A DNA stretch of 58,393 nt from Alphaproteobacteria bacterium RIFCSPLOWO2_01_FULL_40_26 (GTDB lineage Bacteria; Pseudomonadota; Alphaproteobacteria; Rickettsiales; UBA1997), in NCBI GenBank assembly GCA_001767955.1, contig MEMO01000031.1:50647-109039 (forward strand). The letters run 5' to 3'. The notes beneath the pieces were generated by a model. That model was not told where the DNA came from and did not search any database. It worked only from the letters and a program-made list of their open reading frames with translations. This document shows positions 885 through 36,016 of the stretch, one piece after another (positions within the stretch are counted from its first letter, which is position 1; each line of letters starts with the position of its first letter). The position numbers were made by a program, and so were the translations under genes.

Positions 885-2479
885 AGCCTGTCTTCCACCA
901 ACTTCACAAAATTTTCCACACCAAAAAGCGCAATAAATGAACCCATTCTTGGTCCTTGATCCTGGCCGAGCAGGATTTGATAAAGCGCCAAAAACCATTC
1001 ACGCATTTTTTGTTCATAGCCGTGATTGCGGCCAACTTCAAAAACGATTTTTTGTAATTCATCACTGTCGCACTTCGCACTTCGCGCAGCCTGCGCTGAA
1101 CTTGTTTCAGTGTGTTTCGGAAGTTTTTCACAAAGTTCAATAAGAGCTGATTTTTCATCTTCCGTCGCCTTGCGGAATTTTTTATTTTTCCTGATGAAAT
1201 CGTTGTAATATCTGATTGCACAATGAACCATCTTGGCAAGAAGCGGTGAATTTTCTGGCGTTAGACCTTGCTGATATTTGGAAATGAAGCCCCACAAAAC
1301 CGCGTCATTTTCAGGATTGCAGGCGCTGGCAAGATTGAGCAATAGCGAGTAATTCAAATTAAAATTAATTTCCGGCACATTGCTCTTATGGATGTGAAAG
1401 GCTGGATTATCCAGCTTCGCTGACATTTCCTGCGTTGCAAAACTTTGCGCAAAAGCAAGATATTCATCCATCATTTTTGGAATCACATCGAAATAAAGCC
1501 GCTTGGCGGTTTTTGGTTTTTGATACATGAACAGCGCCATGGATTCAGATGGGGCATACTTCAACCAATCTTCCACCGAAATGCCATTGCCTTTTGATTT
1601 GGAAATTTTTTCACCGCTTTCGGATAAAAACATTTCGTAAGTAAAGTTCACCGGAGGTGTGCCGCCCAAGATTTCGCAAACTCGGCGGTAGATTTTTTCA
1701 TTGGGCTGATGGTCTTTGCCATAAATTTCATAATCAACATCAAGGCTATACCAGCGCGCACCAAAATCGATTTTCCATTGCAATTTGCAATTGCCGCCAG
1801 TCACCGGAACTTCTTTTTCATGGCCATTGCCATCAACATAAATCACCGTTCCTTTTGTTTTGTCGATACATTTAACGCCTTTATCAATCACTATTCCCGA
1901 CTCGCGATCAATTGGCATAAAGGGTGAATAAGTTTCCTGACGTTCAGCGCCAAGCGTTGGTAACATTAGCTCCATGAGCTCTTCATATTTTTCCAAAACG
2001 CGTAGCATGGTTTTATCAAACGCACCATATTTGTATTTCTCCGTTGCAGAAATGAATTCATATTCAAAACCAAAACCATCCAGGAATGAACGCAGACGCG
2101 CATTCATGTGATGTCCATAAGACTCGTGCGTACCAAAAGGATCGGAAACAGAAGTGAGTGGTTTACCCAAATTTGCCCGCAGCAACTCTTGCTGTGGCAC
2201 ATTTTCCGGCACTTTGCGCAGACCATCGATATCGTCAGAAACGCAAAACATTTTTGTTGGAATTTCCGGCGCGATCAGCTGAAAAGCATGACGCACAAAT
2301 GAGGTTCGCACCACCTCACCAAAAGTTCCAATATGCGGCAAGCCAGACGGGCCATAGCCAGTTTCAAACAGCACAAAACCTTTTGCCGGAGTTTTTCCAG
2401 CAATTTTTTTGTAAATTCTTTGCGCCTCTTCGAAAGGCCACGCTTTTGATTCGAGATAATGTTTATGAGAAATTGTCAT
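881..2479 (-). CDS. lysS: Lysyl-tRNA synthetase, class I
   Basis: 532 aa. It has the HIGH-like [10 protein letters not shown] motif and KISKSKGNG (KMSKS), with a length and N-terminus (WPFEEA) typical of class I LysRS of alphaproteobacteria, spirochaetes and archaea. Confidence 0.9.
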
Positions 2480-2604: not shown

Positions 2605-4032
2605 TCACAAATTTTTACCACTTTTACTTCCTTGCCATCCCTGCGAAAGCGGGGATCCAATCATAAAATTTCCTTCAACTCCTAAAGCCTTGATTTTCAA
2701 GATGTCGCCGGATTTTAAATTTTTAATTTCTCCGGAAATTTTCACATCCAGGAAATTTTCTGCCTTGCCGATTCCATCTTTTTCCACAAGCACTTTGAAA
2801 GTTTTTTCGACCTGTTTTTTAAGAAATTTTTGTAATTCCGCCTGCCCTGCTTCACGCAATATCCGCGCACGTTCTTTGACTATTTTACCATTAATTTGTG
2901 GCATTTTTGCGGCTGGTGTTCCATCGCGTTTTGAGTAAGGAAAAATATGGGTAAAAATTATTCCGGCTTGCTTGATTAGCTTCACAGAATTTTCAAACAT
3001 TTCATCAGTTTCAGTGGGAAATCCGGCGATGATATCAGCGCCGAAAGTCATATCTGACCTGATTTGGCGAGCTTTCTTGCAAAACTCCAAAACTTGCACG
3101 CAATTATGCCTGCGCTTCATTCTTTTTAAAATTATATCATCACCCGATTGCACACTCAAATGCAGATATGGCATGAAGCGCGGTTCGTTTTTGAGAATAT
3201 CAAAAAATTCTTCGTCAATTTCTGCAACATCGATTGAGGAAAGACGCAGGCGCGGCAGTTCTGGCACAAGTTTTAGCAGGCGTTTGATCATTTGCGACAG
3301 CGTGATTTTTATTGCCAAATCTTCGCCATAACTCGAAATGTCAACTCCAGTTAAAACAATTTCATGATGCCCAGCTGCAACCATTTTTTTTGCTTGCAAA
3401 ACAATCTCACCAAAGCTTACCGAACGACTATTTCCGCGGCCAAACGGGATCACACAAAAAGTGCAGCGATGATTGCAACCATTTTGAATTTCAAGAAAAG
3501 CGCGGGTTTTATTTTCAAAATAAGAGATGAGTTGCGGCGCAGTATCACTGACTGACATTATGTCATTAACCTTGATTTTGGCGGTTTCAAATTCATTTAG
3601 AAAAATTTGCGAGGATTTTTTTGCTTCAGAAAAAATGCGGTCTTTATGAACAATTTCATTGTTAGTGGTAGGTAAGTAGTAAGTGGTAAGGTTGTTGCTC
3701 TTACCACTTACCACTGACCACTTATCACTAAAATCATAACTCTCTGCTCTCGTCTTCTCAACATTGCCAACTACCAAATCCACCTCTTCCATCTTCGCAT
3801 ATTTCTGCGGATCGATTTGGGCAGCGCAACCTGTTATCACAATTTTTGCTTCAGGATTATTTTTTCGTGCTTTGCGTACAGCTTGGCACAACTGACGCTC
3901 AGCTTCAGAAGTAACGGCACAAGAATTGAAAATGATAAGATTTTTCTGAGCGGTTTTTTTTAGAACTTCTTTTATGCCTTCAGATTCATAGGCATTTAAG
4001 CGACATCCAAATGTGATTACCTGATTAGACAC
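2605..4032 (-). CDS. mtaB: Radical-SAM methylthiotransferase, MtaB-like (MiaB/RimO family)
   Basis: 475 aa. N-terminal MTTase motif ITFGCRLNAYESE, radical SAM box GCNHRCTFCVIP and a C-terminal TRAM-like region. GTG start. It contains an in-frame hairpin repeat, and its last ~17 codons are repeat-derived. Confidence 0.8.
   Translation of the reverse strand: MSNQVITFGCRLNAYESEGIKEVLKKTAQKNLIIFNSCAVTSEAERQLCQAVRKARKNNPEAKIVITGCAAQIDPQKYAKMEEVDLVVGNVEKTRAESYDFSDKWSVVSGKSNNLTTYYLPTTNNEIVHKDRIFSEAKKSSQIFLNEFETAKIKVNDIMSVSDTAPQLISYFENKTRAFLEIQNGCNHRCTFCVIPFGRGNSRSVSFGEIVLQAKKMVAAGHHEIVLTGVDISSYGEDLAIKITLSQMIKRLLKLVPELPRLRLSSIDVAEIDEEFFDILKNEPRFMPYLHLSVQSGDDIILKRMKRRHNCVQVLEFCKKARQIRSDMTFGADIIAGFPTETDEMFENSVKLIKQAGIIFTHIFPYSKRDGTPAAKMPQINGKIVKERARILREAGQAELQKFLKKQVEKTFKVLVEKDGIGKAENFLDVKISGEIKNLKSGDILKIKALGVEGNFMIGSPLSQGWQGSKSGKNL
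2633..2658. repeat. Single TGYCAY-hairpin unit (tgccatccctgcgaaagcggggatcc) inside the 3' end of the mtaB-like ORF
   Basis: Stem atcccc/ggggat-type with a GAAA loop. It has the same architecture as the units at 2575-2600, 42019-42044 and 55081-55106, and it encodes the tail ..GSPLSQGWQGS. Confidence 0.7.
3661..3730. repeat. Heptad hairpin, GGTAAGT type, in frame within the mtaB-like gene
   Basis: Left arm gttagtggtaggtaagtagtaagtggtaagg, loop ttgttgct, right arm cttaccacttaccactgaccacttatcactaa. It is translated on the minus strand as DKWSVVSGKSNNLTTYYLPTTN, between the MTTase and radical-SAM domains. Confidence 0.85.
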
Positions 4033-4185
4033 TGTTAGCTAATTATTTTTTTCGGGATTTTTCGTTAATTTTTAGCGACTTTTTTGAAGAATTTCGCCGC
4101 TGTATTAAACATACTGCAAGAAATTCTTCAAAAAAATGAGCAAAAATTTGCGGAAAAGCGCGGAAAAAATAATTAGCTAACAGTG
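4030..4185. repeat. Family A palindromic element (~156 bp), copy A1
   Basis: Outer inverted repeat cactgttagctaattatttttt / aaaaaataattagctaacagtg, inner inverted repeat gaagaatttc / gaaattcttc, apex gccgctgtattaaacatactgc. It fills the gap between the BON-gene stop (4187) and the mtaB-like start (4032). Confidence 0.9.
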
Positions 4186-4186
4186 T

Positions 4187-4819
4187 CTACCCGTGGCGGC
4201 GTCTGCTGTCATCTTCTAAAATCACATGGTTAACAACTTGATCGACACCGCGAATCCTTGATACGATTGATAAAACGCGACGCATCTCAAATTCATTATC
4301 GGCAACTCCAAGCAGATAAACTGTGCCATTCACTGTTGTTACCTGATAGTTGATCGAGGTAATATCGCGGGCAAAAAGTAATTTGGTTTCGACCTGCGCA
4401 GTGATTATGTAATCAAGAAAAACCGCAGAAAAATCATTGCGGCCTCCGGTATTATTTTTTGTGTTATTTTTGTCCTGATTTTCATTGGAGCGTGAATGGA
4501 TTTCGTTAATAACTTCCTTTACGCCATCAACCTTCCAGACTAATTCCTGCGCCAGAACTGACTTGCTTTCATCACGCACATTTCCGGTTAAAAGCACTCT
4601 GCCCTCATTCACTGTGATATCAACACAATTGCCGGGATTTTTCAGGCCATTGGCGATAAATTTTGTGCCAAGCTTGGTTGAAATCGCTATGTCTTTGCCA
4701 GTATCACTTAAACTTTTTTCACGCACTACAAGACCGGCTCCGGCAACTGACCCAACCACAATCGTTTCAACGCAGGAAGTTAACAAAAAAACCAAAGAAA
4801 AAATTACAAAAATTCTCAT
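4187..4819 (-). CDS. BON-domain (OsmY-like) lipoprotein
   Basis: 210 aa. Lipobox LLTSC, and two BON-like segments (ITVNEGRVLLTGNVRDE.. and VTTVNGTVYLLGVADNE..). Confidence 0.7.
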   Translation of the reverse strand: MRIFVIFSLVFLLTSCVETIVVGSVAGAGLVVREKSLSDTGKDIAISTKLGTKFIANGLKNPGNCVDITVNEGRVLLTGNVRDESKSVLAQELVWKVDGVKEVINEIHSRSNENQDKNNTKNNTGGRNDFSAVFLDYIITAQVETKLLFARDITSINYQVTTVNGTVYLLGVADNEFEMRRVLSIVSRIRGVDQVVNHVILEDDSRRRHG

Positions 4820-4922: not shown

Positions 4923-4997
4923 GCGGGTGTAGCTCAGTGGTAGAGTGTCACCTTGCCAAGGTGAATGTCGAGGGTTCGAGTCCCTTCGCCCGCTCCA
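4923..4997 (+). tRNA. tRNA-Gly (anticodon GCC), CCA encoded
   Basis: gcgggtgtagctcagtggtagagtgtcaccttgccaaggtgaatgtcgagggttcgagtcccttcgcccgctcca. It has a cloverleaf with anticodon loop cuuGCCaa, a GGTTCGAGTCC T-arm and a 7-bp acceptor stem with one G-U. It is close to E. coli tRNA-Gly(GCC). Confidence 0.95.
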
Positions 4998-5370: not shown

Positions 5371-5768
5371 TTTCAGCATCAATTGTAATTCTTCTACTTT
5401 CTTCCTGTGTAAATTTTTTAGCGCAAAAAAATTTCATCCGGCCAGCTGAAATAGAAGTATCGCAAGATTTTGTTCAAGGCAGTGAAGACATACCATTGCT
5501 AATTGGAATGGAAAAAATTTCAGAGGAAAGTCTTGGTTTTGATTCCGCTTCCGGCAGTATAATTTCGTCAAGCTATACAACAAATCTGACAGAAAAACAG
5601 ATCAGAAATTTTTACCTCAAAACCTTGCCACAAATGGGTTGGGATATTGTTAAAAACGTTGAAAAAGGATCAAGTTTTAAAAGAGAAAATGAAAATCTTG
5701 AAATTGAATTCCTTCAGGAAAATAACAAACTGATAATCAGGTTTTTTATCTCATCAACATCAAATTAG
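5358..5768 (+). CDS. Hypothetical lipoprotein
   Basis: [17 protein letters not shown] has a lipobox. 136 aa with no recognised domain. The start is uncertain (TTG at 5349 or ATG at 5358). Confidence 0.5.
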
Positions 5769-6923
5769 CCGCATATTTCCATAATCCACATCGCGGTGAT
5801 ATTTTCTTTTCGTAAAAGCCAAAATCAGTCCAAAACAAACCGCCATCGCAATCATTGACGAACCGCCATAGCTGATAAAAGGCAAGGTCATCCCTTTAGT
5901 TGGAAGCAAGCGTAAACTAACGCCAACATTGATGATTGTTTGCACGATAAATTGCAGCATCAAACCGCAAAGCGAAAGATAGACAAACATATCTTCCTCC
6001 TCAAGCGCACGCCGGACAATTCTGGTGATCAGATAGGCAAAAATGATCAGAATCACGGCACAGGAAAAAATGCCATATTCCTCACCAATCACGGCAAAAA
6101 TAAAATCGGTATGGGCATCGGGAATAAATTTTTTCACCACACCATTTCCCGGGCCTTCACCAAAAAACGAGCCATTAACAAAAGCATCGAGAGATCTTTC
6201 AACCTGATAATTTTTTTCGCCGGAATCAAGAAAGCGGTTGATACGATCTTCGACATGAGGAAAAGCAAGATAAGCACTAACGCCTCCGACAACCACAAAA
6301 AACACCATCACCAAAATAAATGGCAAAGGCAATCCGTAGACAAAAAGTTGTGAAGCCCACAAAACCGCAAAAATCAGAGTCATGCCAAAATCCGGCTGCA
6401 ACAAAAGCAAAGAAGCAATGATAAAAAAAAGCGCGGCGGAAACTGAATATTTGATATACCAATCATGCTTGTGCAACTTGTGCAAAATGAAGGCATTGAA
6501 AACTATGAAGAATATTTTGGCAAACTCAGAAGGCTGTAGAGTGAAACCGGCAACAGAAATCCATCTTTTTGCGCCTTTGGTTTCTGAACCAAAAAACAAA
6601 ACCGCAACCAAAAGCACAATGGATCCTGTTAGACAAACCAGCGACAAAATTTTGATTTTTTCGTAATCGAGAAATGAAATCGCAATCAACAAAACCACGG
6701 CAATCATGGCAAAAACCGCCTGCTTTTTGAAAAAAAACAACTTCTCAACATTAATCTTTTTGGCAATCGCCGGACTAGCGCTAACCGTCATCATCAGCCC
6801 GAAAATGATGATGCCAAGCAGAATGAAGAAGATGATCTTATCAATATCAAGCCACCATTTTTTAAGAGGGTTTAGATAGCGGCGATCAAAGACAATATTG
6901 GATTTTACGCCCCAGCCATTCAT
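5760..6923 (-). CDS. ftsW: SEDS-family peptidoglycan glycosyltransferase, FtsW-like
   Basis: 387 aa polytopic membrane protein. It has ..MTVSASPAIAKK.. and a C-terminal LLPTKGMTLPFISYGGSS motif typical of FtsW/RodA. FtsW versus RodA is not certain. Confidence 0.75.
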   Translation of the reverse strand: MNGWGVKSNIVFDRRYLNPLKKWWLDIDKIIFFILLGIIIFGLMMTVSASPAIAKKINVEKLFFFKKQAVFAMIAVVLLIAISFLDYEKIKILSLVCLTGSIVLLVAVLFFGSETKGAKRWISVAGFTLQPSEFAKIFFIVFNAFILHKLHKHDWYIKYSVSAALFFIIASLLLLQPDFGMTLIFAVLWASQLFVYGLPLPFILVMVFFVVVGGVSAYLAFPHVEDRINRFLDSGEKNYQVERSLDAFVNGSFFGEGPGNGVVKKFIPDAHTDFIFAVIGEEYGIFSCAVILIIFAYLITRIVRRALEEEDMFVYLSLCGLMLQFIVQTIINVGVSLRLLPTKGMTLPFISYGGSSMIAMAVCFGLILAFTKRKYHRDVDYGNMRLI

Positions 6924-6925
6924 TA

Positions 6926-7005
6926 TAGATTTAAGATTTAAGATTTGGGATTTAGTATTTTTTTCAGCTCATAAATCCTAAATCCTAAATCCTAAATCCT
7001 AAATA
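6926..7005. repeat. Heptad hairpin, TAGGATT/TAAGATT type, filling the ftsW<>argH divergent intergenic region
   Basis: Left arm tagatttaagatttaagatttgggatttag, right arm ataaatcctaaatcctaaatcctaaatcctaaata. The intergenic region is 6924-7012. Confidence 0.9.
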
Positions 7006-7012
7006 ACTTTTC

Positions 7013-8407
7013 ATGTCAAAACAGTCAGTAAGCAAAATATGGGGTGGAAGATTTGATGCCGAACCTTCATCGCTGATGCAGGAAATCAATCAATCAATCA
7101 GTTTTGATTATAAGCTTTACAAGCAGGATATTCGTGGCTCAAAAGCACATGCTAAAATGCTGGAAAAAGTTGGGATTTTAAGCGCAAGTGAAGCAAAAAA
7201 AATTTGTGATGGCTTGAATAAAATCGAAAAGGAAATTGTGGCAGAAAAGTTCAATTTCAAAATCGAGCTTGAAGATATTCACATGAACATCGAATCACGC
7301 CTAAAGGAAATTATCGGTGATACAGCCGACAAGCTGCACACAGCGCGGTCGCGCAATGACCAAGTTGCGCTCGATTTGCGTCTTTTTGTGCGCGATGAAG
7401 TTGACGAAATTTTAAAATTATTAAAAGATCTGCAAAAAACTTTGGTGAAAAAGGCCGAAGAAAATCTCGATGTCATCATGCCCGGATTCACGCATTTGCA
7501 GGTGGCACAACCAGTTTTATTTTCGCATCATCTGCTGGCCTATTTTGAAATGTTCAAACGCGATATTTCACGACTTTACGATTTAAGAAAAAGAATGAAT
7601 GAATGTCCGCTCGGCGCTTGCGCACTGGCTGGAACTTCATTTCCAATTGATCGCAAAATGACAGCAAAAGAACTTGGTTTCGATGCGCCAACCGCCAATT
7701 CCATGGATTCAGTTTCAAACCGCGATTTCGCCATCGAATTTCTTTTTTGCCTGTCATTGATTGCGCTAAATCTTTCGCGCTTTGCTGAAGAAATTGTGAT
7801 GTGGATGAGCAAAGGATTTAAATTTATCACCTTGTCCGACGCCTTTACTTCCGGCTCTTCAATCATGCCACAGAAAAAAAATCCCGATGCCGCTGAATTG
7901 GTGCGCGGAAAATCGGGAAGAATTTTTGGCGCATTATTTGCATTGCAAACCACAATCAAATCGCTTCCTCTCACCTATTCAAAAGACATGCAGGAAGATA
8001 AAGAACCGATTTTTGACGCAACAGAAAATTCCAAACTTTGCCTACGCACAATGGCGGGGATGATTGCCGATATGAAGGTGAACAAAAAACAAATGCTGGA
8101 AATGGCCGGCACTGATTATTCCTGCGCCACTGATCTGGCTGATTGGTTGGTTAAAAATCTGAAAATTCCTTTTCGTAAAGCACATCACATCACCGGATCA
8201 ATCGTGAAAATGGCTGAAAATAAAGAATTGGAACTTCATGAATTAAAACTGACTGATCTGCAAAAAATCGAGAAAAAAATCTCGAAAAAAATTTTTGACG
8301 CTCTTTTAGTTGAAAATTCTATCAATAGCAGAACCTCATTTGGCGGCACCGCGCAACATCAGGTAAAATTACAAATCACAGCAGCAAAGGAATTTTTACA
8401 AAGATGA
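7013..8407 (+). CDS. argH: Argininosuccinate lyase
   Basis: 464 aa. WGGRFDAEPS.., fumarate-lyase signature GSSIMPQKKNPD. Confidence 0.95.
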   Translation: MSKQSVSKIWGGRFDAEPSSLMQEINQSISFDYKLYKQDIRGSKAHAKMLEKVGILSASEAKKICDGLNKIEKEIVAEKFNFKIELEDIHMNIESRLKEIIGDTADKLHTARSRNDQVALDLRLFVRDEVDEILKLLKDLQKTLVKKAEENLDVIMPGFTHLQVAQPVLFSHHLLAYFEMFKRDISRLYDLRKRMNECPLGACALAGTSFPIDRKMTAKELGFDAPTANSMDSVSNRDFAIEFLFCLSLIALNLSRFAEEIVMWMSKGFKFITLSDAFTSGSSIMPQKKNPDAAELVRGKSGRIFGALFALQTTIKSLPLTYSKDMQEDKEPIFDATENSKLCLRTMAGMIADMKVNKKQMLEMAGTDYSCATDLADWLVKNLKIPFRKAHHITGSIVKMAENKELELHELKLTDLQKIEKKISKKIFDALLVENSINSRTSFGGTAQHQVKLQITAAKEFLQR

Positions 8408-8433
8408 AAAAAGGCCATGTCGCAAATCAACTT

Positions 8434-8601
8434 TCTAGAGCCTGTTTTCAAACCCACCACATTTCGCTTTTGCCCAAATTTTGGCTCGTTTTTTGGCAAA
8501 ATTTTTTGCAGTATGCCAGATACAGCGGCAAAATTTTGCCAAAAAGTCGCACAAAATTTGGGCAAAATCGAAACGCGCTGGGTTTGAAAACAGGCTCTAA
8601 A
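8434..8601. repeat. Family A palindromic element (~168 bp), copy A2 (apex in opposite orientation)
   Basis: tctagagcctgttttcaaaccc ... gggtttgaaaacaggctctaaa, with inner ttggcaaaatttt / aaaattttgccaa and apex gcagtatgccagatacagcggc. It is nearly identical in design to 31714-31879. Confidence 0.9.
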
Positions 8602-8643
8602 AAATCTGAACCCTTGATTTACAAGGACTCCTCGAATTTAAAA

Positions 8644-8799
8644 ATGGTAAGAAATAGAAATTTGCGACAGTCGGGAAAAGGTTTTTGTTTTATTTTATTA
8701 TCACTTTTTCTTTTGAACTCCTGCGGCAGAAAAGGCGCTCTTGAATATCCAGGCGAACGTAAGCAGCCTAAATTTGAGAATGTGATTGATGAGAGTTAG
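8644..8799 (+). CDS. Small lipoprotein, LptM/YifL-like
   Basis: 51 aa. ..FILLSLFLLNSCGRKGALEYPGE.. resembles the L.GCG.KGPLY.P signature of the small lipoprotein commonly found downstream of argH. The 80 upstream codons of the track ORF (8404-8643) are a translation of repeat A2. Confidence 0.5.
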   Translation: MVRNRNLRQSGKGFCFILLSLFLLNSCGRKGALEYPGERKQPKFENVIDES

Positions 8800-8806: not shown

Positions 8807-9703
8807 CTAAAATTTAACTGAATATTTCTTGCTCAAATAAGCTTCAACATCATCAATTTCTGACTGTCTCAAGGCGCGGTCAAAGATGATTAATTCAGAA
8901 AATTGGCCATCGAATTTTCTAGCGGTTAAAGAATCAAAAAGTGTGCCGATGACTAGCTGTAAACTAGCTTTATCAAAAGAGCCGGCACTTGCCGATGCCT
9001 GATTAATCTCAACTGCGTTATTTAGCCATAACGTTGCTCCCACTGTATAATTTCTTACATAAGAAAATATGTAGTCCTTTTTAGCCACAATATCAGAGCT
9101 GCTAACATTAGAGTTACCTCCGCTTGCTCCAGTTGGACCTCTGTGCAAAGCTCTAAATTTCGGGGTAGAGGAGTTAATTTGAAGATTAATACCATGTTCT
9201 CCACTTTCGTTTGTCCAATTTGAATCATTATCATAAAAGGCCCCCAACAGCGCAGACTCTGAAACGGTATCTGGTTTAAAAACCATAAAAATAGTATAGC
9301 TTGGCGAAGAAAAATAAATGTCTTTGCCATACAAAGGAGTTCCGGTCGAGCCGGAAAACTTGATTGATGGAATGCCTCCGATGCCTTCAGCAAGATAGGT
9401 TGGCCTGTTTCCCGATGAATCCTGAGAAAGATTAATTTTGTAAGAAGATTGAGGATTGATATCGTTCCATTTTGCCACCGCATCGCCATTTCCGAGATCG
9501 GAATCAAAGCTCGATTCAAGAGTTGGCTCAACCCACAAGATCAAATCTTTGATTGAATTAACTGGAGAACTTTGGGTTAATGATCTTGCCGAATTTAGGC
9601 GCATTTGCTTAACCAACCTGCTGCTTTGAGTAACGCCGGCAATGAGAATTCCGATAATTAAAATTACGATAGAAAGTTCGATTAAAGAAAAAGCGCGTTT
9701 CAT
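8807..9703 (-). CDS. Prepilin-type N-terminal methylation-domain protein with a C-terminal LamG/concanavalin-like domain
   Basis: MKRA|FSLIELSIVILIIGILIAG is a class III signal with Glu5. The C-terminal ..FDGQFSELIIFDRALRQSEIDDVEAYLSKKY is typical of LamG-type domains. It is a paralog of 48401-49291. Confidence 0.75.
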   Translation of the reverse strand: MKRAFSLIELSIVILIIGILIAGVTQSSRLVKQMRLNSARSLTQSSPVNSIKDLILWVEPTLESSFDSDLGNGDAVAKWNDINPQSSYKINLSQDSSGNRPTYLAEGIGGIPSIKFSGSTGTPLYGKDIYFSSPSYTIFMVFKPDTVSESALLGAFYDNDSNWTNESGEHGINLQINSSTPKFRALHRGPTGASGGNSNVSSSDIVAKKDYIFSYVRNYTVGATLWLNNAVEINQASASAGSFDKASLQLVIGTLFDSLTARKFDGQFSELIIFDRALRQSEIDDVEAYLSKKYSVKF

Positions 9704-9708
9704 GGTTT

Positions 9709-10323
9709 TTAAATTATTTTTTGAATTATTTGGTCAACCTTCTTACTAAAGCTTAACTTTGATAGCCTCTGATTATTATATAAAACAAAGTCAGATTCCG
9801 TGATTCGTTTCACATCAGGAAGTTGATTCGAAATAATTTGTTTAAATTTTTTTTCTAAATCGGAAATTTTTTGACACAAATCTTTTTTTCTTTCTCTGTT
9901 CAAAAAGCGTTCCTTACACAAATATTTTGGCGCTATTATTGCAACAACATAATCATATTTATAACCTTTGGTTTCCAAGAGAAGAGGAATATTAAGAACC
10001 ACAAGATTTGTCTTTTTTTTACGGCAATCTTGCAAAAATTTTTGATAATTTTTTCTAACCTGTGGATGAATAATTCTTTCAAGAATTTTTAATTTTTTTT
10101 CATCGGCAAAAACGATTTTTCCTAAAATTTTCCGATCAATTTCCTCTTTAATAAAACTTTCAGGAAAAATTTTTTTAACCTTTGAAATCGTTGATTTGTC
10201 TGAATCCAGCAATCTATGAACTTCCTTATCCGCATCAAAAATAACCGCTCCCTTTTGCGCAAAAATTTCAGCAACAAAATTTTTTCCGGAGGCAACTCCG
10301 CCGGTAAGTCCGATTATTTTCAT
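9709..10323 (-). CDS. coaE: Dephospho-CoA kinase
   Basis: 204 aa. The N-terminal IGLTGGVASGKN P-loop and the length fit CoaE. Confidence 0.85.
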   Translation of the reverse strand: MKIIGLTGGVASGKNFVAEIFAQKGAVIFDADKEVHRLLDSDKSTISKVKKIFPESFIKEEIDRKILGKIVFADEKKLKILERIIHPQVRKNYQKFLQDCRKKKTNLVVLNIPLLLETKGYKYDYVVAIIAPKYLCKERFLNRERKKDLCQKISDLEKKFKQIISNQLPDVKRITESDFVLYNNQRLSKLSFSKKVDQIIQKII

Positions 10324-16189: not shown

Positions 16190-16196
16190 GATTTAA

Positions 16197-16356
16197 GAAA
16201 CTGTTTATAATCTTTTTTAACCCCAGATTTTACCCTGTTTTTGCTTATTTTTTGACAAAATTACTCACCGTATTTCCAGATACGCTTCGTAATTTTGTCA
16301 AAAAAGCGCTAAAAACATGCTAAAATCTGGGGTTAAAAAAGATCATAAACAGTTTC
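16197..16356. repeat. Family A palindromic element (~160 bp), copy A4, occupying the rpsB-tsf intercistronic gap
   Basis: gaaactgtttataatcttttttaaccccagatttta ... taaaatctggggttaaaaaagatcataaacagtttc. Inner gacaaaattac / gtaattttgtc, apex ccgtatttccagatacg. The stems differ from A1-A3 but the architecture is the same. Confidence 0.9.
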
Positions 16357-17372
16357 TAAGATTTTGCAGCCTTTTTTGTCGGCTTTTTTGTTATCACTTT
16401 TACTGCCGGTTTTTCTTTTTCAGACTTTTTAGCGACTGATTTTTTGGCAGGTTTTTTATCTTCAGATTTTGCAATGGATTTTTTGACCGGCTTTTCTTCT
16501 TTTTGTTCTTCTTTTTGTTCTTCTTTTTGTTCTTCTTGTTGCTCTTCTTGTTCTTCATCTTCTTTTTTCTCTTCTTGTTGTTTCAGCGGTTTTTTTGCTT
16601 CTTCCTTTTTCAGATTACCAGCATTTGGCAATTCACCTTCACCAAATTTGCTAATATCAATACCAGACAAAGCCATGTTCTCCTTGATTCCGGCAATTAT
16701 GGCATCGGAAATCAGTCGACAAAAAATCTTGATTGATTTTGCTGAATCGTCATTTCCTGGAATCGGAAAAGTGATTCCATCAGGATTGCAATTGGTATCA
16801 AGAATGGCCATGATTGGAACATTAAGCTTTTTTGCTTCAGCAATGGCGATGGCTTCTTTGTTGGTGTCAATGACAAAAACCAAATCAGGATAGCCACCCA
16901 TATTTTTAATACCGCCTAGAGCCTGTTCGAGTTTTAGCCTTTGTCTTTCGAGCACCAACTTTTCTTTTTTGTTATAGCCAACTTCAGTGTCAGACAATTG
17001 TTCTTCGATTTTCTTCAGGGTTTTGATTGATTGCGAAACGGTTTTCCAGTTGGTGAGCATGCCTCCAAGCCAGCGGAAATTGACATAATATTGCCCACAT
17101 CTTTTCGCTGCTTCGGCAACGGCTTCAACAGCTTGTTTCTTGGTTGCAACAAAGAGAATACGGCCATTATTCTTGGCGATTTCTTTGACAATTTTTAACG
17201 CGTTATGAAGAAGATTTGCGGTTTTGTTGAGATCGATGATGCTGATACCGTTGCGGTTAGCATGGACATATTTCGCCATTTTGGGATTGCGACGCATGGT
17301 CTTGTGACCAAAATGCACTCCTGCTTCAAGCAATTGACGAATGGAAAAATTTGGAAGTTCGGTTTTTGACAT
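16356..17372 (-). CDS. rpsB: 30S ribosomal protein S2 with a ~85-aa Lys/Glu/Ala-rich C-terminal extension
   Basis: The N-terminal 250 aa are canonical S2 (LLEAGVHFGH.., WLGGMLTNW). The tail is ..EEQEEQQEEQKEEQKEEQKEEKPVKKSIAKSEDKKPAKKSVAKK.. and is encoded partly by a 12-nt tandem repeat (16494-16556). Confidence 0.93.
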   Translation of the reverse strand: MSKTELPNFSIRQLLEAGVHFGHKTMRRNPKMAKYVHANRNGISIIDLNKTANLLHNALKIVKEIAKNNGRILFVATKKQAVEAVAEAAKRCGQYYVNFRWLGGMLTNWKTVSQSIKTLKKIEEQLSDTEVGYNKKEKLVLERQRLKLEQALGGIKNMGGYPDLVFVIDTNKEAIAIAEAKKLNVPIMAILDTNCNPDGITFPIPGNDDSAKSIKIFCRLISDAIIAGIKENMALSGIDISKFGEGELPNAGNLKKEEAKKPLKQQEEKKEDEEQEEQQEEQKEEQKEEQKEEKPVKKSIAKSEDKKPAKKSVAKKSEKEKPAVKVITKKPTKKAAKS

Positions 17373-21770: not shown

Positions 21771-24169
21771 AATTCGCCCTCTCCTCTCTCAAAGAATATC
21801 TCGAAACATCAGCCTCACTTGAAGAAATTTGTCAAACCCTCACCAACATTGGGCTTGAGGTTGAATCGGTAGAAGATAAAGCAAAAATTCTGGCGCCATT
21901 TTCCGTAGCAAAAATCCTCGAAGCAAAACCGCATGAAAATTCCAACAAACTGAAAATTTGTCTGGTTGAAACTGCAACACACGAAGCACGAAGCACGAAG
22001 CACGAAGCACGAACAACGACACCATTGCAAATCATCTGTGGCGCTGCAAATGCCAGAAGTGGTTTGAAAGTGGCTTACGCACCAATCGGATCGGTAATTC
22101 CGGCAAATGGCATGTTGATTAAAAAGGCCAAAATCGCCGGAGTTGAAAGCAATGGCATGCTTTGCTCTGCACGCGAATTGGGGCTTGGCGATGAAGATTC
22201 CGGCATCATCGAAATCGATGAAAAATGGGCAATTGGCACAAAAATCACTGAAGTTTTTGGGTTAAATGATGCAGTAATTGAGATCAACGTCACACCAAAC
22301 CGAGGTGATTGCCTTGGAGTTTATGGCATCGCTCGCGACCTTGCTGCTTCTGGCATCGGACAATTAAAAAATCCTGAAATCAAAAAAACGCAGGCGAAAT
22401 TTCCATTTCCATTTGAAGTCAAAAATGAGTCAACACAGCTCTGCAGCTACGCCGCTTTTCGCATAATCAAAAACATAAAAAATTGCGAATCACCAAAATG
22501 GCTAAAAGACAAGCTGCAAGCCGTTGGCATTAATTCAATTTCTGCCATCGTTGATGTGACAAACTACATCATGCATATTTTGAACCGTCCGATGCATGCT
22601 TATGACGCCATTAAAATCAACGCTCCACTCACAATTCGTCTTGCAAAAAAAGATGAAAAATTTGTCTCGCTAAAAAATGAAGAATTTATTTTAGATGAAA
22701 AAATTTTGGTAATTTCCGATACAAAAAAAGCGGTTGGAATCGCTGGAATTATTGGCTCTGCAGATTCTTCCTGCGATTTAACCACAACTGAAATTCTACT
22801 TGAAGCAGCATTTTTTGCACCATCGGCAATCGCCTATTCCGGCCGCAAATTAAACATCCTATCCGATGCCAGACACCGTTTTGAACGCGGCGTTGATGAA
22901 ACAACATGTGAACAGGGAATTGATCTTGCCACTCAACTAATCCTTGAAATCTGCGGCGGCGAAGCCAGTGAAGTGAAATTTGTCGGAACAAAATCAACAA
23001 CAAAAGAAATCGCCTTCGACATCACAAAAATCAAAAAACTCATCGGCATCGAAATCGCCGAAGAAAAGGTTTGGGAAATTTTAAACAAACTAGAATTCCG
23101 AAGCACGAAGCACGAAGCACGAAGCACGATCCAAATCCCCCCACACCGCCATGATATTTTCTCGTCAGAAGATTTAGTCGAAGAAATAATCCGCATCCAT
23201 GGCTACAACAAAATCCACTCCCAAACATTGCCAGATGTTAACTACCCGCTACCCGCTACAGACTGCAAATTAACCAAAACCCGCCTACATCTTGCCTCCC
23301 TCGGTCTTACCGAAATAATTTCCTGGTCTTTTGTTAATTCAAAACTGGTCGAAATTTTTGGCGAAAAAAATGAAAAGCTGATTTTGGCCAATCCGATTTC
23401 TTCCGCAATGGATCACATGCGCCCTACTCTGGCAATTGGCCTAATTGAATCATACCAAAAAAATTCTCTTAGAAATTTCTGCAATCTCTCGCTCTTTGAA
23501 ATCGGAAATGTTTTTATTGGCGAAACACAAAAGCTGATGATCTCTGGCTTGAGAGCCGGCAAAAACAAAGAACAAAATCATTATCACGATGAAAGGGATT
23601 TTGATGTTTTTGACGTCAAAAAAGATTTTTTTGAAGTGGTAGAAATTTTTGGATTACGTGCTGAAAGCCTGCAAATCATCACTTCTGAAGCGCCAAAATA
23701 TTATCATCCATATCGCAGCGCAACTTTGAAACTGGGAGAAAATATCGTCGGATATTTCGGTGAAATTCATCCGGCAATTACAAAAAAATTTGATCTAAAA
23801 ACTCGTCCAAACCTTTTCGAAATTTTTGTTGATGCATTGCCTAATCAAATAAAACCAGCTTCCCACAAGACATTTGTTCTGAATGATTTACCAATTGTCG
23901 AACGCGATTTTGCTTTTATTGTTGATAAAAATCTGGCAGTTTCGGAATTGCTAAAAACCATCAGCAACACTGAAAAACAGCTGATCCGTGAAGTTAATAT
24001 CTTCGACATTTTCACCGGCAAAAATATCGCTGGAGACAAAAAATCCGTGGCTTTGCGCGTCAAAATTCAACCACAGGAAAAAACTCTCACTTCCGCAGAA
24101 ATTGACGCAATCAGCAAAAAAATAATTGATTCTACAATTGCCATTCACGAGGCTTCATTGCGCGAATAA
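21767..24169 (+). CDS. pheT: Phenylalanyl-tRNA synthetase beta subunit, carrying two in-frame heptad-repeat insertions
   Basis: 800 aa. It has the N-terminal tRNA-binding OB domain (..LQIICGAANA..GVESNGMLCSARELG), the B3/4 and B5 domains (..PPHRHDI..) and a C-terminal anticodon-binding-like domain. TTG start overlapping the atpF stop. No pheS upstream. Confidence 0.92.
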   Translation: MKFALSSLKEYLETSASLEEICQTLTNIGLEVESVEDKAKILAPFSVAKILEAKPHENSNKLKICLVETATHEARSTKHEARTTTPLQIICGAANARSGLKVAYAPIGSVIPANGMLIKKAKIAGVESNGMLCSARELGLGDEDSGIIEIDEKWAIGTKITEVFGLNDAVIEINVTPNRGDCLGVYGIARDLAASGIGQLKNPEIKKTQAKFPFPFEVKNESTQLCSYAAFRIIKNIKNCESPKWLKDKLQAVGINSISAIVDVTNYIMHILNRPMHAYDAIKINAPLTIRLAKKDEKFVSLKNEEFILDEKILVISDTKKAVGIAGIIGSADSSCDLTTTEILLEAAFFAPSAIAYSGRKLNILSDARHRFERGVDETTCEQGIDLATQLILEICGGEASEVKFVGTKSTTKEIAFDITKIKKLIGIEIAEEKVWEILNKLEFRSTKHEARSTIQIPPHRHDIFSSEDLVEEIIRIHGYNKIHSQTLPDVNYPLPATDCKLTKTRLHLASLGLTEIISWSFVNSKLVEIFGEKNEKLILANPISSAMDHMRPTLAIGLIESYQKNSLRNFCNLSLFEIGNVFIGETQKLMISGLRAGKNKEQNHYHDERDFDVFDVKKDFFEVVEIFGLRAESLQIITSEAPKYYHPYRSATLKLGENIVGYFGEIHPAITKKFDLKTRPNLFEIFVDALPNQIKPASHKTFVLNDLPIVERDFAFIVDKNLAVSELLKTISNTEKQLIREVNIFDIFTGKNIAGDKKSVALRVKIQPQEKTLTSAEIDAISKKIIDSTIAIHEASLRE
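21978..22016 (+). repeat. Tandem (AGCACGA)n, about 5 units, in frame in pheT
   Basis: cacacgaagcacgaagcacgaagcacgaagcacgaacaa is translated as THEARSTKHEARTT, inside the OB domain just before LQIICGA. Confidence 0.9.
23098..23129 (+). repeat. Tandem (AGCACGA)n, about 4 units, in frame in pheT
   Basis: ccgaagcacgaagcacgaagcacgaagcacga is translated as RSTKHEARST, in the B5 region just before IQIPPHRHD. Confidence 0.9.
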
Positions 24170-32633: not shown

Positions 32634-34624
32634 GTCAGTTTGAAATAAAAGGTGCGGCCAACTTCGGTCTTTCTGTTGTAAAGAGCGGACTTGAATTCCT
32701 GATGACGCTGATCGAATAAATTTTGAATGCCGAGACTTAAATCAAGATTATCGGTGGCGAGATAGCCAAGTCTGGTATCGAATCTTAAATAGGAAGGAAG
32801 GCCTTTGGCACCATGAGTTGAACCGGCTTCGGGAAGATTATCGACATACATTGCCATATTGTCGAATTGGAGTTCGGGGGTGAGATTGTAGAAGGATTTT
32901 AGTTTTAGCTGGTGTTGGGGAGTTTGGCCTTCGGTCATTTCCAAAGCATCTCTTTGTCCCCTATAACTCAAACGATCTGTTGAATTGTCGCTGATATGCA
33001 AATCAATATGAACAAAATCATAACTTGCTTCCAATTTTAATCTATTGGTTGCCTGCCATTTGCCATTGATTTCGAAGCCGTAAGATTCGCCGAAACCGAG
33101 ATTTGCGGTTGTTGGTATTGTGTTATCTGGACCAGTAGCTTCGTAGGTTCGTAGCTTTGAATAATCATCGTAGAAAATTGTAGCATCAATTAAAGTTCTT
33201 TGAGTTGGTCTTACTCTATATCCAATCTCGTAAGATATCAGTTGCTCTGATTCATAAGTGGTACTGCCTCTACTTAAAGTATCAGCTTTATTTGTAATCT
33301 TGAGATCAAGACTCCCACCTTCTCCCATGGTTGGAGTTCTAACCGATCTTGAAATCGCCGCCCAAACAGTTTGGTTTGGAGTTGGATAATAAGATAATCT
33401 GGCATTTGGCTGATATTCAAAACCGGTGAGGTCATTATGTTCAAATTTTGAGCCGATAGTTAGATATAATTCATCTGGAATTAGGCCAATTCTATCTTGA
33501 ATGAAGGCGGTAAAAAGCTGGTCATTTTCATGATTAGAAGAGTAATAAATCGGAATTGCGCCATTTGCAGTAGTACCAAAATCTCTATCATAAATTATCT
33601 GCCTATAACCAACTCCCCAAATGAATTTATTATTTTTGGATAAGTCGTAGAAGTGCTGAAAATCGACATCGAAAATTTTTTCGTCTATCTGAAGAATTGG
33701 AACATCAATTTTGTTATAGGTAAAATAACTGCGTAGGTTAAGATTTGATTTTTTAGAAATTCTATTTTCCCAACTAGCCATAATATTTCCACCGGTGGTC
33801 GAAATATTATTTTTCTTCGGATTATCCAATTGCGTAAAATAATTCTGCGCCACATTGTGAAAAACATCGCCATGAATCGATAAACTTCCATCGTCAAAAG
33901 TTTTTGTATCGTAGCGGAAGCCGGACATTTCAGTTCTTAAGCCATCATCATTTCTGGTTTTGGTGTCATATCTATCTACTCCATCCCTTAATACTCTTTT
34001 AGCATAAAGACGGTAATAATCCTTACCGGCAACTTCTCCTCCATATCTTGCCTCTGTAATTGACTGATCTTGATTACCAACAATTTGCGAAACATAAGCG
34101 CCGCTGGTTTTAATTGCGCTTTTGGTGATGATATTAATTACACCATTAACCGCCCCAGCCCCCCAAATGGCGCCACCGGAACCTCTGATTACTTCGATGC
34201 GATCGATGTCTTCAAGAACATAATCGTAGATATGCCATGGCACACCAAATAACGGGCTGTAAATTGTTCTGCCATCAATCAGAACCAGAATTCTATTGGA
34301 ATATTGGCGGTTAAAACCGCGAATAGTTATAGCATAGCTATGGCCATTAAGACGCGAAACCTGCACCCCCGGCACCAAACGCAAAGCTTCGGGAATTGAA
34401 GTAGCGCCAGATCTTCTGATTTCTTCCGAGCTTAAAACATAAACAGCCGATGGTAAATCAAAGGCATTTTCTCTCTTTTTTGATAGGGAAAAAATTGGTA
34501 AAGACTCAAATTCTTTTAAAATATCATTGATTGGCTTTGAATCATTTTTGGTATCCTGTTTGGAATGTGCAGTCGCACAGGAAAGAAAAAGCAATATGAC
34601 AACTGCGTTTATAATCTTTGTCAT
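32621..34624 (-). CDS. TonB-dependent outer-membrane receptor, copy 1
   Basis: 667 aa. Signal peptide, plug (..IRRSGATSIPEALRLVPGVQVSR..ITIRGFN..LVLIDGR..), a long beta-barrel and a terminal ..FYFKLTWQY aromatic residue. No FecA-type N-terminal extension. Confidence 0.9.
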   Translation of the reverse strand: MTKIINAVVILLFLSCATAHSKQDTKNDSKPINDILKEFESLPIFSLSKKRENAFDLPSAVYVLSSEEIRRSGATSIPEALRLVPGVQVSRLNGHSYAITIRGFNRQYSNRILVLIDGRTIYSPLFGVPWHIYDYVLEDIDRIEVIRGSGGAIWGAGAVNGVINIITKSAIKTSGAYVSQIVGNQDQSITEARYGGEVAGKDYYRLYAKRVLRDGVDRYDTKTRNDDGLRTEMSGFRYDTKTFDDGSLSIHGDVFHNVAQNYFTQLDNPKKNNISTTGGNIMASWENRISKKSNLNLRSYFTYNKIDVPILQIDEKIFDVDFQHFYDLSKNNKFIWGVGYRQIIYDRDFGTTANGAIPIYYSSNHENDQLFTAFIQDRIGLIPDELYLTIGSKFEHNDLTGFEYQPNARLSYYPTPNQTVWAAISRSVRTPTMGEGGSLDLKITNKADTLSRGSTTYESEQLISYEIGYRVRPTQRTLIDATIFYDDYSKLRTYEATGPDNTIPTTANLGFGESYGFEINGKWQATNRLKLEASYDFVHIDLHISDNSTDRLSYRGQRDALEMTEGQTPQHQLKLKSFYNLTPELQFDNMAMYVDNLPEAGSTHGAKGLPSYLRFDTRLGYLATDNLDLSLGIQNLFDQRHQEFKSALYNRKTEVGRTFYFKLTWQY

Positions 34625-34663: not shown

Positions 34664-35012
34664 ACGCCAATTCCGGATAAGAACCTGCCTAAATTTTTCT
34701 CGATCTACTCCCCTCTCCCCTTGTGGGAGAGGGTTGGGGTGAGGGGTAAATTTTAAAACATCAATTCAGAAATTTTGGAAAGAATCGATTAAAAAAGTTA
34801 ATACCCCTCACCCTAACCCTCTCCCACAAGGGGAGAGGGAACTAATCGAGATTGGCTTGATGCCTTATCCGGAATTGGCGTTATCAAAAATTTACCCCTC
34901 ACCCCAACCATCAGACACAAGGAGGAAGGGAAAACCGAGGTTACGACGCCAAAAACGTGTGTTTAGCACGTCTTCTTCCCTCTTGCGTACGAGGCTGGTG
35001 GTGGGTAACAAT
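34664..35012. repeat. Large palindromic repeats of the ccctctccccttgtgggagaggg / ggggtgaggggt type (family F)
   Basis: 34664-34881 is a ~218-bp inverted repeat (acgccaattccggataag...cttatccggaattggcgt) with internal hairpins. A second, more degenerate inverted pair lies at about 34886-35012. Its translation gives the spurious PLPLWERVGVRG peptide. Confidence 0.85.
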
Positions 35013-35518: not shown

Positions 35519-35983
35519 TTAGTTAATAACCAAAGTCACAAATGTTGAATTTAGCTTGACGCTAAAATCTTTTGCGGTTTTGGAGTTCATTGTGATTTCA
35601 AAATCACGACGTCCCAACTCAACTCGGAAAGTGCCGCCACCTTCAACAAAATTGTCAAAAACGGCGATGGTTGGAATTCTTTTTTTGTTAAATTTATCAA
35701 CTTCAATACGGAAGATTTTTTTAATGTCCTGTGCCAAATAGACCACTTTACAATGGTCATATTTTTTTGGGTTAACATCAATATTGTCGTTAACAAAAAA
35801 TTTAGAAACTTCATCACCACCAACAATACAAAATATTTTATTTTTTTCAGTTTCAGCGCTATTGGCCATTTTCTGAATAAAGACGGCATAAGCTTTTGCT
35901 TCGTCATAACCGGCAATTTCTGCCAACGCATTGCAAGCAAAAAAGATAACAAAAAAAAAATAAAAAATTACGTAACGCATCAA
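35519..35983 (-). CDS. YfiR-like periplasmic protein (DUF4154 family), copy 2
   Basis: 154 aa. Signal peptide ..FACNALA. ..IFCIVGGDEV.., ..CKVVYLAQ.. and ..IPTIAVFDNFVEGGGTFRVELGRRDFEITMNSKTAKDFSVKLNSTFVTL. Paralog of 32118-32633. Confidence 0.7.
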   Translation of the reverse strand: MMRYVIFYFFFVIFFACNALAEIAGYDEAKAYAVFIQKMANSAETEKNKIFCIVGGDEVSKFFVNDNIDVNPKKYDHCKVVYLAQDIKKIFRIEVDKFNKKRIPTIAVFDNFVEGGGTFRVELGRRDFEITMNSKTAKDFSVKLNSTFVTLVIN

Positions 35984-36016
35984 AACTCTTTCGCCCTAGA
36001 AGTTTGTTTTCAAACT

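Follow-up and report, generated by a model that had tools for sequence, protein, structure and literature searches.

Several spacers between divergently transcribed genes in a 58 kb stretch of DNA from an uncultured groundwater alphaproteobacterium (hereafter, the window) are filled, nearly from start codon to start codon, by hairpins whose arms consist of tandem 7-nucleotide (nt) units, or heptads. These hairpins are a lineage-specific form of the known bacterial heptamer-repeat phenomenon. In the reading we favor, to which we assign a probability of roughly 0.55, the heptads are heptameric long simple-sequence repeats (LSSRs) that grew in place by slippage and arm-to-arm copying and were then filtered by selection, being neither an inserted element nor a purpose-built regulatory device. 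Below, ‘<>’ marks a divergent gene pair, and L-numbers (e.g., L014, L128, L131) designate other loci or contigs compared with the window. The hairpins had been described in an earlier note made from the window sequence alone (the original prediction). Its gene identities were checked by Pfam and confirmed, with matches to FtsW, ArgH, ZnuA, an ABC ATPase (ZnuC-like), an ApbC/Mrp-type ATPase, a Band-7 protein (HflK-like), PhoU, and PurD.

A Heptad Hairpin at ftsW<>argH and Its Ancestry

The ftsW gene (5760–6923, minus strand) and the argH gene (7013–8407, plus strand, starting at the ATG at 7013) are separated by 89 nt (6924–7012), of which a single hairpin covers 6929–7004. The left arm (6927–6954) begins 3 nt past the ftsW start codon (6923, minus strand) and is made of four unlike heptads, TAGATTT/AAGATTT/AAGATTT/GGGATTT. 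It is followed by an inner stem and loop of unique sequence (6955–6971), with positions 6961–6972 unpaired in the predicted fold, and by a right arm (6972–7004) consisting of 4.7 units of AAATCCT with 100% matches, which ends 8 nt short of the argH ATG. Predicted RNA folds reach −25.3 kcal/mol for the plus strand (z −5.0) and −28.4 kcal/mol for the minus strand (z −6.7), and none of 200 shuffled sequences folded equally well. As DNA, it folds at −14 kcal/mol (z −4.0), and DNA parameters reproduce the RNA-predicted structures. The coordinates, arrays, and fold z-scores thus bear out the claim that this spacer is almost entirely one heptad-armed hairpin.

Synteny of ftsW and argH is retained in relatives with 78–84% ArgH identity, and the content of the junction varies among them. 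In L192 and L193, the spacer is 58 nt long and contains a proto-hairpin, GAGATTTAGATTTTGGATTTAAT...GGAATCCTAAAAC, with no fold above chance (z −0.8). This spacer, including ...GAGATTTAGATTTTGGATTTAATGTTTTTGGAATCCTAAAAC..., aligns with the left arm and loop of the window hairpin, the left arm being homologous to the proto-hairpin GAGATTTAGATTTTGGATTTAAT, and it holds one right-arm unit only, AATCCTAAAA. L131 carries a full hairpin of 90 nt built from another unit (TTTACGA/AAATCGT; −36.6 kcal/mol, z −9.7). Heptads were looked for at the L130 junction and none were found; L191 has a 214-nt spacer without heptads and with a different, GC-rich palindrome; and L128 has, instead of a heptad hairpin, an insertion with a GIY-YIG remnant. 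Because the L192/L193 proto-hairpin aligns with both arm and loop, the window hairpin is apparently the expanded descendant of a short ancestral quasi-palindrome. Its right arm is probably the latest expansion, as recent slippage would predict a perfectly homogeneous right arm, such as that seen here.

The L128 insertion is peculiar in its own right. It lies at 9476–9976, in a spacer of 501–525 nt, and includes a 67-amino-acid open reading frame (ORF) matching the N-terminal half of a GIY-YIG nuclease domain (E 5.5e-9). Small palindromic motifs border this ORF. The insertion, which looks like a decayed homing-endonuclease-like one, is flanked by a motif, CCCGAAACAAGTTCGGGATGAC, that is similar to GATCCTGAAACAAGTTCAGGATGACA of the 145-nt palindromic repeat of the window.

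The window is contained in contig MEMR01000020.1 of assembly GCA_001768015.1. Five assemblies with identical ArgH have equal unit numbers at the ftsW<>argH spacer; they are clonal, with at most one base difference in 17 kb, so this identity carries no power as a polymorphism test. The same assemblies bear on whether the repeats could be a short-read metagenome assembly artefact at low-complexity sequence. Two Logan unitigs do break within the right arm of the ftsW<>argH hairpin; against this, the sequence is identical in the five assemblies, which stem from different samples and pipelines, orthologous hairpins are found in independent metagenomes, and reading frames remain intact through the arrays located inside genes, leaving an artefact with a negligible probability.

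Turnover at phoU<>purD

The phoU<>purD junction is occupied by a hairpin of the same kind, as had been claimed. It spans 56769–56855, beginning just past the phoU start codon (56768, minus strand) and stopping 7 nt short of the purD ATG (56863), with arms of TTTAGGA/TTTAAGA and AAATCCT/AAATCTT and predicted RNA folds of −41.2/−39.5 kcal/mol (z −9.4/−11.7). Among relatives with 65–74% PurD identity, hairpins are present at this junction in L132/L134, L133, L135, L136, and L074, extending from 1 nt past the phoU start to 7–10 nt before the purD start. In L137/L138 and L140–L143, the junction is a plain AT-rich spacer with no fold above chance, and in L139 no hairpin is found at the junction.

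The repeats themselves change over short distances. L133 and L136 are 97.6% identical and one 7-nt unit apart at phoU<>purD; between L133 and L135, at 93.4% identity, AAG/AGG changes distinguish several inner left-arm units. The proposed inspection of related strains for unit-number differences therefore had a positive outcome at this junction, at 93–98% identity. The accompanying suggestion that the repeats are slippage substrates holds as evolutionary turnover, given this 7-nt indel and these unit changes; as phase variation, it is unsupported. The genes flanking the hairpins are housekeeping genes. Unit variants also tend to be mirrored between the two arms in L132, L139, L131, and L128, a weakly significant tendency (combined p of about 0.03) with only 4–5 units per arm.

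Spacer length is nearly the same in the two states, namely 94–96 nt with a hairpin and about 78–112 nt without one (182 nt in L139). Since length is similar with and without the hairpin, the repeats appear to have replaced an ancestral AT-rich spacer rather than added to it.

Other Intergenic Sites in the Window

The znuA<>znuC hairpin (47595–47667) pairs CGTGCTT/CGTGCAT units with 4.6 units of AGCACGA and is among the strongest predicted (about −54 kcal/mol, z −12.4/−10.2). It had been described as another filled divergent spacer, which is correct for the hairpin and its heptad; the element is not purely intergenic, since its left arm overlaps the probable start of znuA. This start is most likely the in-frame ATG at 47622 (minus strand), within the left arm, which yields a protein beginning MHDARSTKHGK, with a signal-peptide-like stretch next and then the ZnuA domain. 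A long GTG-started ORF crossing the hairpin is not credible, and the first in-frame ATG is that at 47622.

At apbC<>hflK, a full hairpin had been anticipated and was not borne out. The site is a direct array of 6.7 ATTTAGG/ATTTAAG units (50085–50131) that begins 2 nt past the apbC start (50082, minus strand), together with a terminal 7-bp inverted portion (AGGATTT A AAATCCT) that brings the whole to 50085–50138. The predicted fold of this site, −13 kcal/mol with a z of about −2, is unconvincing. In relatives, the junction is free of arrays.

A small hairpin missing from the original prediction lies at 41878–41928 (plus strand), directly 3′ of a hybrid histidine-kinase ORF (stop at 41875). It is formed by 2.6 units of CGTGCTC and by GCACGAA/GCACGAT, folds at −24.4 kcal/mol (z −3.9), and adjoins a 145-nt palindromic repeat. 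It is the only hairpin positioned 3′ of a gene; the three other intergenic hairpins each lie between two start codons. Loop, flank, and length differ among all heptad sites and none is shared. The units (AAATCCT, AAATCTT, AGCACGA, GTAAGTG) form no G-tract run, with GGG occurring in one unit only.

Heptad Arrays inside Genes and the Reading-Frame Filter

The original prediction also overlooked heptads inside genes, at miaB, pheT (two sites), lysS, and the znuA start. In miaB, a heptad hairpin of the GTAAGTG/CACTTAC family (3662–3731, minus strand) is in frame and translated, adding 15–19 amino acids to the linker between the UPF0004 and radical-SAM domains in the window and in L128 relative to L130 and L131, which lack it. 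The L128 hairpin is at the same position and is built from a different unit, GTAAGTC/GACTTAC; one variant unit in it abolishes an otherwise in-frame TAA. In pheT, 4.9 units of CACGAAG (21980–22013, plus strand) encode THEARSTKHEAR, a 12-amino-acid insertion in a loop of the tRNA-binding domain by comparison with solved PheT structures, and 4.4 units of CGAAGCA (23099–23129, plus strand) encode RSTKHEARST in a variable stretch of the B5 domain. Finally, 3.1 units of CACTTCG (1063–1085, minus strand) lie within the ORF of a class-I lysyl-tRNA synthetase (lysS).

The units found in genes differ from those found between genes in their stop codons. AAATCCT, AAATCTT, and AATTCTT introduce stops in six of six frames and are intergenic only; AGCACGA and CACTTCG, with a stop in no frame, and CTACCCG, stop-free on the coding strand, each occur in ORFs. 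All ORF-located units are stop-free on the coding strand. This distribution, in which stop-bearing units are confined to spacers and stop-free units extend into ORFs, is the mark of a repeat that can originate at any site and is screened by selection afterwards.

In-frame insertions in miaB and pheT are also what mobile palindromic elements could leave behind, whether MITEs (miniature transposable elements with inverted repeats), repetitive extragenic palindromic (REP) sequences, or relatives of the Rickettsia palindromic elements (RPEs), if they inserted as ready-made hairpins. Further points in favor are that the metagenome-assembled genomes (MAGs) of the closest named ArgH relatives carry the label ‘Rickettsiales bacterium’ (others, ‘Proteobacteria bacterium’), that the genome is rich in other dispersed palindromic repeats, and that one unit occurs at several loci. 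However, the heptad hairpins share no conserved loop, end, length, or flank; no target-site duplication was seen; relatives contain an arm-homologous proto-hairpin; the unit changes at a fixed site between relatives; and composition-matched control heptads form arrays about as often. Insertion of mobile elements is thus largely refuted and highly improbable.

Period 7 and Distribution beyond the Window

The heptad pattern has 16 matches in the window against 0.01 expected, and the arrays detected by Tandem Repeats Finder comprise 4–6.7 units with 83–100% matches. Period 7 stands out among short periods, with 10 runs in the window (58 kb) versus 0–2 for each other period from 4 to 12. A scan of a genome collection for AAATCYT arrays found them in more than 120 stretches from many phyla, and the 120 loci used for comparison across phyla contain 233 period-7 runs versus 0–20 for other periods. 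An inverted partner lies within 120 nt of 79 of these 233 arrays, compared with 13 in a reversed-unit control. The same architecture is seen in examples from Patescibacteria and Cyclobacteriaceae. In other phyla, arrays extend to coding boundaries, with a 25th-percentile distance of 1 nt to a stop and 6 nt to a start, and co-directional spacers there show no preference for start- or stop-proximal positions (61 versus 64).

This wide distribution of AAATCYT is no evidence of transfer, because control heptads form arrays about as often. In viral contigs, AAATCCT arrays gave 21 matches, two composition-matched control heptads 11 and 8, and AGCACGA 4; a mobile element shared or transferred across phyla was ruled out by these controls.

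Closer to the window, the heptads are unevenly spread. Three relatives with 78–81% ArgH identity (L191–L193, 64 kb) have no period-7 run, against ten in the window; therefore, heptad proliferation is specific to sublineages. This hints at a genome-level cause, e.g., a difference in repair or hairpin processing. Within the 58 kb, three junctions have AAATCYT in common, and AGCACGA is present at three sites, with the variant CGTGCTC/GCACGAA at a fourth.

In an unrelated genome (L117, 6600–6760), a heptad hairpin with nine AGATTTA units per arm encloses a GC-rich stem-loop, GTAGAGGGGACC...GATCCCCTCTAC, and it looks as if the heptads extended an existing hairpin outward.

Preference for Divergent Junctions

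Four of the five intergenic heptad sites in the window are divergent junctions, where they abut start codons. Counting only spacers of at least 40 nt, arrays occupy four of seven divergent, none of nine co-directional, and one of three convergent spacers, which gives p = 0.038 for divergent spacers against the rest (4/7 versus 1/12, Fisher's test) and p = 0.12 when only full hairpins are counted. The original prediction had placed four of five full hairpins at divergent junctions; three of the five are so placed, along with one direct array. The window has seven to eight divergent junctions, rather than roughly nine, and one of those counted in the original prediction is really a protein gene facing a tRNA gene (4923–4994, plus strand), which is located in the long spacer that separates a BON-domain gene from the ORF after it.

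Arrays encountered in relatives outside the search anchors are divergent as well, at queH<>fpg in L128 and upstream of polA in L139. Among freshwater alphaproteobacterial MAGs, divergent arrays are present at MFS<>hslV in L049 and in L014; L065 looks orthologous to the L049 MFS<>hslV junction by gene sizes. Beyond the lineage, the picture changes. The 120 loci have 125 intergenic arrays in co-directional, 33 in divergent, and 23 in convergent spacers, whose total lengths are 55, 27, and 13 kb, and arrays with an inverted partner number 44, 11, and 11, respectively. The proposed preference for divergent junctions therefore stands for the window and its lineage, in small numbers, and is not general, as no enrichment is found across these 120 loci.

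Within the lineage, two causes of the preference are possible by inference. Two opposed A/U-rich leaders may be a natural inverted-repeat seed, or negative supercoiling between divergent promoters may favor hairpin extrusion. In the window, co-directional and convergent spacers hold dispersed palindromic repeats of greater length instead.

Promoters, Leaders, and Sequence-Specific Factors

By symmetry, the same sequence lies 5′ of both divergent start codons, as the original prediction pointed out. As far as ribosome binding goes, this is nothing unusual, since the genome makes hardly any use of Shine-Dalgarno (SD) sequences. Even by a loose pattern, SD-like motifs precede about 14 of 51 window genes, and leaders are A/U-rich, an indication that initiation here is largely SD-independent. 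A missing SD sequence was ruled out as a special feature of the arrays, most window genes having none. The arrays end 2–17 nt from the starts of ftsW, argH, apbC, phoU, purD, and znuC, and an (AAAUCCU)n leader would not be out of character, since native leaders are A/U-rich and SD sequences are scarce.

Signals for transcription are harder to pin down. A scan for sigma-70 consensus promoters found none above chance, and a terminator scan of ftsW<>argH and phoU<>purD found no terminator-like site. With Rfam 15, the tRNA at 4923–4994 was the sole match in the window to reach a gathering score. The −35/−10-like pattern TTTAGG-N17-TAAGAT that had been proposed for the arrays exists at 50093 (toward hflK) and 56772 (toward purD) and is absent from the ftsW<>argH hairpin, where, by our reading, TTTAGG-N17-TAGGAT occurs on the minus strand. 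By our own count, the heptads match the −35/−10 consensus weakly, at about 7 of 12 positions. The strongest argument for a function of the repeats, an indirect one, is that they overwrote the whole control region of genes heading transcription units while keeping its length. Either the repeats supply the signals or the promoters sit within the neighboring ORFs.

One way to cast such a function is as a bidirectional promoter and leader module. Each arm, read toward the loop (TTTAGGA/TTTAAGA), would present weak −35/−10-like boxes in every register and drive the far gene by initiating close to the loop; read outward, it would form the unstructured, A/U-rich, SD-less (AAAUCCU)n leader of the near gene; and unit number would tune both genes. 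The spaced hexamers just described fit this explanation, as do the TAnnAT-type hexamers (TAGGAT, TAAGAT, TACGAT, TATGAT, TAGAAT) that, by our reading, point toward the loop in the examined AT-rich divergent hairpins of the lineage, the replacement at constant length of the entire spacer of first-in-unit genes, the A/U-rich leaders of a genome without SD sequences, and the position of the lineage's intergenic arrays at divergent junctions. However, the poor consensus match and the scan at chance level count against it, the AGCACGA hairpin at znuA<>znuC has no TA-containing, −10-like box, and two promoters placed face to face would each transcribe through the other. Moreover, close relatives do without hairpins at the same junctions, the same architecture is found elsewhere in co-directional spacers and ORFs, and repeat-number switching is not typical of housekeeping genes. 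We regard this module as possible and unlikely.

Alternatively, the start-adjacent arrays may be sites for a factor that recognizes heptads in RNA or DNA, which the hairpin sequesters or exposes. The use of one or two preferred units per genome, as with GGGAATC in Xanthomonas and TAACTGA in Beggiatoaceae (PMC4692102, PMC4679880), agrees with this proposal, and so do the termination of arrays 2–17 nt from start codons and the recurrence in 58 kb of AAATCYT at three junctions and of AGCACGA-type units at four sites. Yet the unit differs between relatives at a single site (AAATCCT/AAATCGT at ftsW<>argH; GTAAGTG/GTAAGTC in miaB), arrays in ORFs are translated, no candidate protein has been identified, and no functional link joins ftsW, argH, phoU, purD, znuA/C, apbC, and hflK. 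A factor of this kind is improbable.

In its most novel form, the first of these readings would make the heptad hairpin of this lineage a symmetric expression module that renews itself and whose unit number sets both outputs; by the second, a sequence-specific enzyme or binding protein could explain why one genome reuses the same one or two heptads at unlinked sites. Both are distinctly unlikely.

A Model of Growth in Place

In the model that we prefer, growth in place with selective filtering, a short AT-rich quasi-palindrome would have pre-existed between opposed start codons, one of its sides bearing GATTT-type motifs and the opposite one AATCC. Replication slippage would expand it in 7-nt steps, and intra-strand template switching, selection for pairing, or both would keep or make the arms complementary. 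Growth would halt only at coding boundaries, so the hairpin would come to fill the spacer from start codon to start codon. Selection would then act as a filter. Units with stops in six frames would persist only between genes, and units stop-free on the coding strand would persist in genes as well, as in-frame insertions in loops and linkers. Divergent spacers would retain only AT-rich units resembling the native SD-less, A/U-rich leaders and weak TAnnAT boxes, a resemblance through which, we propose, expression of both genes is kept. The structure, the excess of period 7, the origin and turnover in place, the in-frame insertions, the reading-frame filter, and the lineage-limited leaning toward divergent junctions are demonstrated by the data; slippage, template switching, and the retention of promoter and leader function within the hairpin are what the model proposes beyond them.

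Several observations weigh against this model. The recurrence of units at unlinked sites is not predicted by independent in-place nucleation from random seeds and would call for a bias toward particular sequences, a common source, or a common function. The lineage's arrays avoid co-directional spacers, and purely neutral filler should ignore gene orientation. Very clean hairpins, with z as low as −12, have overwritten entire promoter-bearing spacers of housekeeping genes, which suggests that the repeats themselves carry needed signals. Slippage and template switching were not directly observed, and the test for mirrored variants is weak at 4–5 units per arm.

For known heptamer repeats, the period, the genome-specific units, and the frequent inverted pairing remain puzzles, on which this lineage bears. 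It is a natural time series at one orthologous junction, from no hairpin through proto-hairpin and full hairpin to a changed unit, and it carries heptad repeats inside essential genes as well; the series opens both the growth mechanism and the replacement of promoters and leaders to comparative and reporter tests. If the repeats are tolerated filler, they caution against reading regulatory design into symmetric repeats. If they are an expression module, a repeat born of slippage and template switching would have taken over the whole control region of housekeeping gene pairs. Gene callers should expect that start codons and short peptide insertions can derive from repeats.

Other Features of the Window

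Most spacers of at least 80 nt in the window contain some hairpin-forming repeat. A palindromic repeat of about 170 nt, with 70-nt arms and a 24-nt loop, is present in three copies that are 76–87% alike (4026–4189, 8432–8603, 31715–31878), one of them within a 131-amino-acid ORF (8404–8799) that matches nothing in Pfam and is possibly no genuine gene. The 145-nt palindromic repeat containing GATCCTGAAACAAGTTCAGGATGACA lies in two convergent spacers (41934–42078 and 54996–55140) in copies that are 94% identical. Other palindromic families fill co-directional spacers (16191–16362 and 26994–27074; 1–86, 58177–58234, and 58311–58368; 34706–34932), and one of these families is G-rich (GGGAGAGGGTTGGGGTGAGGGGTA).

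Two further features involve coding sequence. A gene pair is duplicated in tandem (32118–34624 and 35519–37996, about 3.39 kb apart), with repeated stretches 73–84% identical; each pair consists of a small ORF and a TonB-dependent receptor (667 or 659 amino acids), and the small ORF at 32118–32633 is DUF4154/YfiR-like. The ribosomal protein S2 gene (16356–17372, minus strand) encodes 338 amino acids, with the Pfam domain at residues 14–228 and a long C-terminal extension holding a 12-nt tandem repeat in 7.2 copies (16494–16579).

Comparison with Known Heptamer Repeats and Palindromic Elements

A close counterpart of the heptad hairpins is found in the inverted heptamer arrays of Xanthomonas. 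X. campestris and X. axonopodis have about 185 GGGAATC arrays per genome, including 70–75 convergent inverted pairs (Rehm et al. 2015, PMC4692102). The Xanthomonas arrays lie mostly just 3′ of ORFs, with 7–8% between divergent ORFs; their length varies between related species while their type (single or inverted pair) is kept, and their function is unknown (PMC4692102). Both systems share about four tandem heptads, two close convergent arrays able to form a stem-loop or cruciform, and a mostly intergenic location, with one dominant unit per genome in Xanthomonas. Inverted array pairs of this type are formed by the three hairpins between start codons, the miaB hairpin, and the hairpin 3′ of the histidine kinase. 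In contrast to the G-rich, quadruplex-capable Xanthomonas unit, units in the window are AT-rich or of the AGCACGA type and have no G-tracts, and instead of lying 3′ of ORFs they fill divergent spacers from start to start and occur in ORFs.

A second point of comparison is the TAACTGA arrays that immediately precede start codons in Beggiatoaceae, cyanobacteria, and some Bacteroidetes (MacGregor 2015, PMC4679880); for Beggiatoaceae, an S1, cold-shock, or CsrA-like protein was proposed to act on them. Those arrays have two to six units a few nt from start codons, some lie in ORFs, and their distribution across phyla is unexplained, all of which is reminiscent of the present case, where arrays are likewise start-proximal and lack a canonical ribosome-binding site. 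Unlike the TAACTGA repeats, which keep a fixed unit and are direct (one inverted in 170), the heptads here are mostly inverted, and their unit varies by locus and by relative.

Palindromes tolerated in frame in conserved protein genes are familiar in Alphaproteobacteria from the RPEs, families of roughly 100–150 nt that have a conserved consensus and are thought to be mobile. The heptad hairpins resemble these elements, and MITEs, in their in-frame insertion into conserved genes (miaB and pheT). They differ in having no conserved sequence beyond the local unit and in arising in place; defined ends, uniform length, a consensus, and target-site duplication were not found in them. Nor do they have the conserved palindrome sequence of REPs and bacterial interspersed mosaic elements (BIMEs), as nothing is conserved beyond the local unit; REPs and BIMEs are imperfect palindromes of 20–40 nt, present in many near-identical copies that a RAYT transposase mobilizes. 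The MITE-like families elsewhere in the window differ from them in appearance.

Quasi-palindrome template-switch mutagenesis, established in E. coli genetics, copies changes between the two arms of an imperfect inverted repeat. This is a mechanism of mutation and not a sequence family, and its action here, which we infer, would explain the mirrored unit variants.

The class to which we assign the heptads is that of the heptameric LSSRs. In many bacteria, heptamers are described as the most frequent kind of long simple repeat, and polymerase slippage is their proposed origin (Mrazek 2007, as cited in PMC4679880 and PMC4692102), and in Coxiella strains the number of heptamers upstream of an ORF varies (PMC4990558). 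As cited in PMC4679880 and PMC4692102, the description of heptameric LSSRs does not include a hairpin architecture or divergent placement. What it and the cyanobacterial (Calothrix) heptanucleotides have in common with the window, as far as those citations go, is an over-representation of period 7, a mostly intergenic location, and slippage as the proposed origin. The window lineage adds to this likeness its tandem 7-nt units, its period-7 excess (within 58 kb), and a change in unit number between close relatives.

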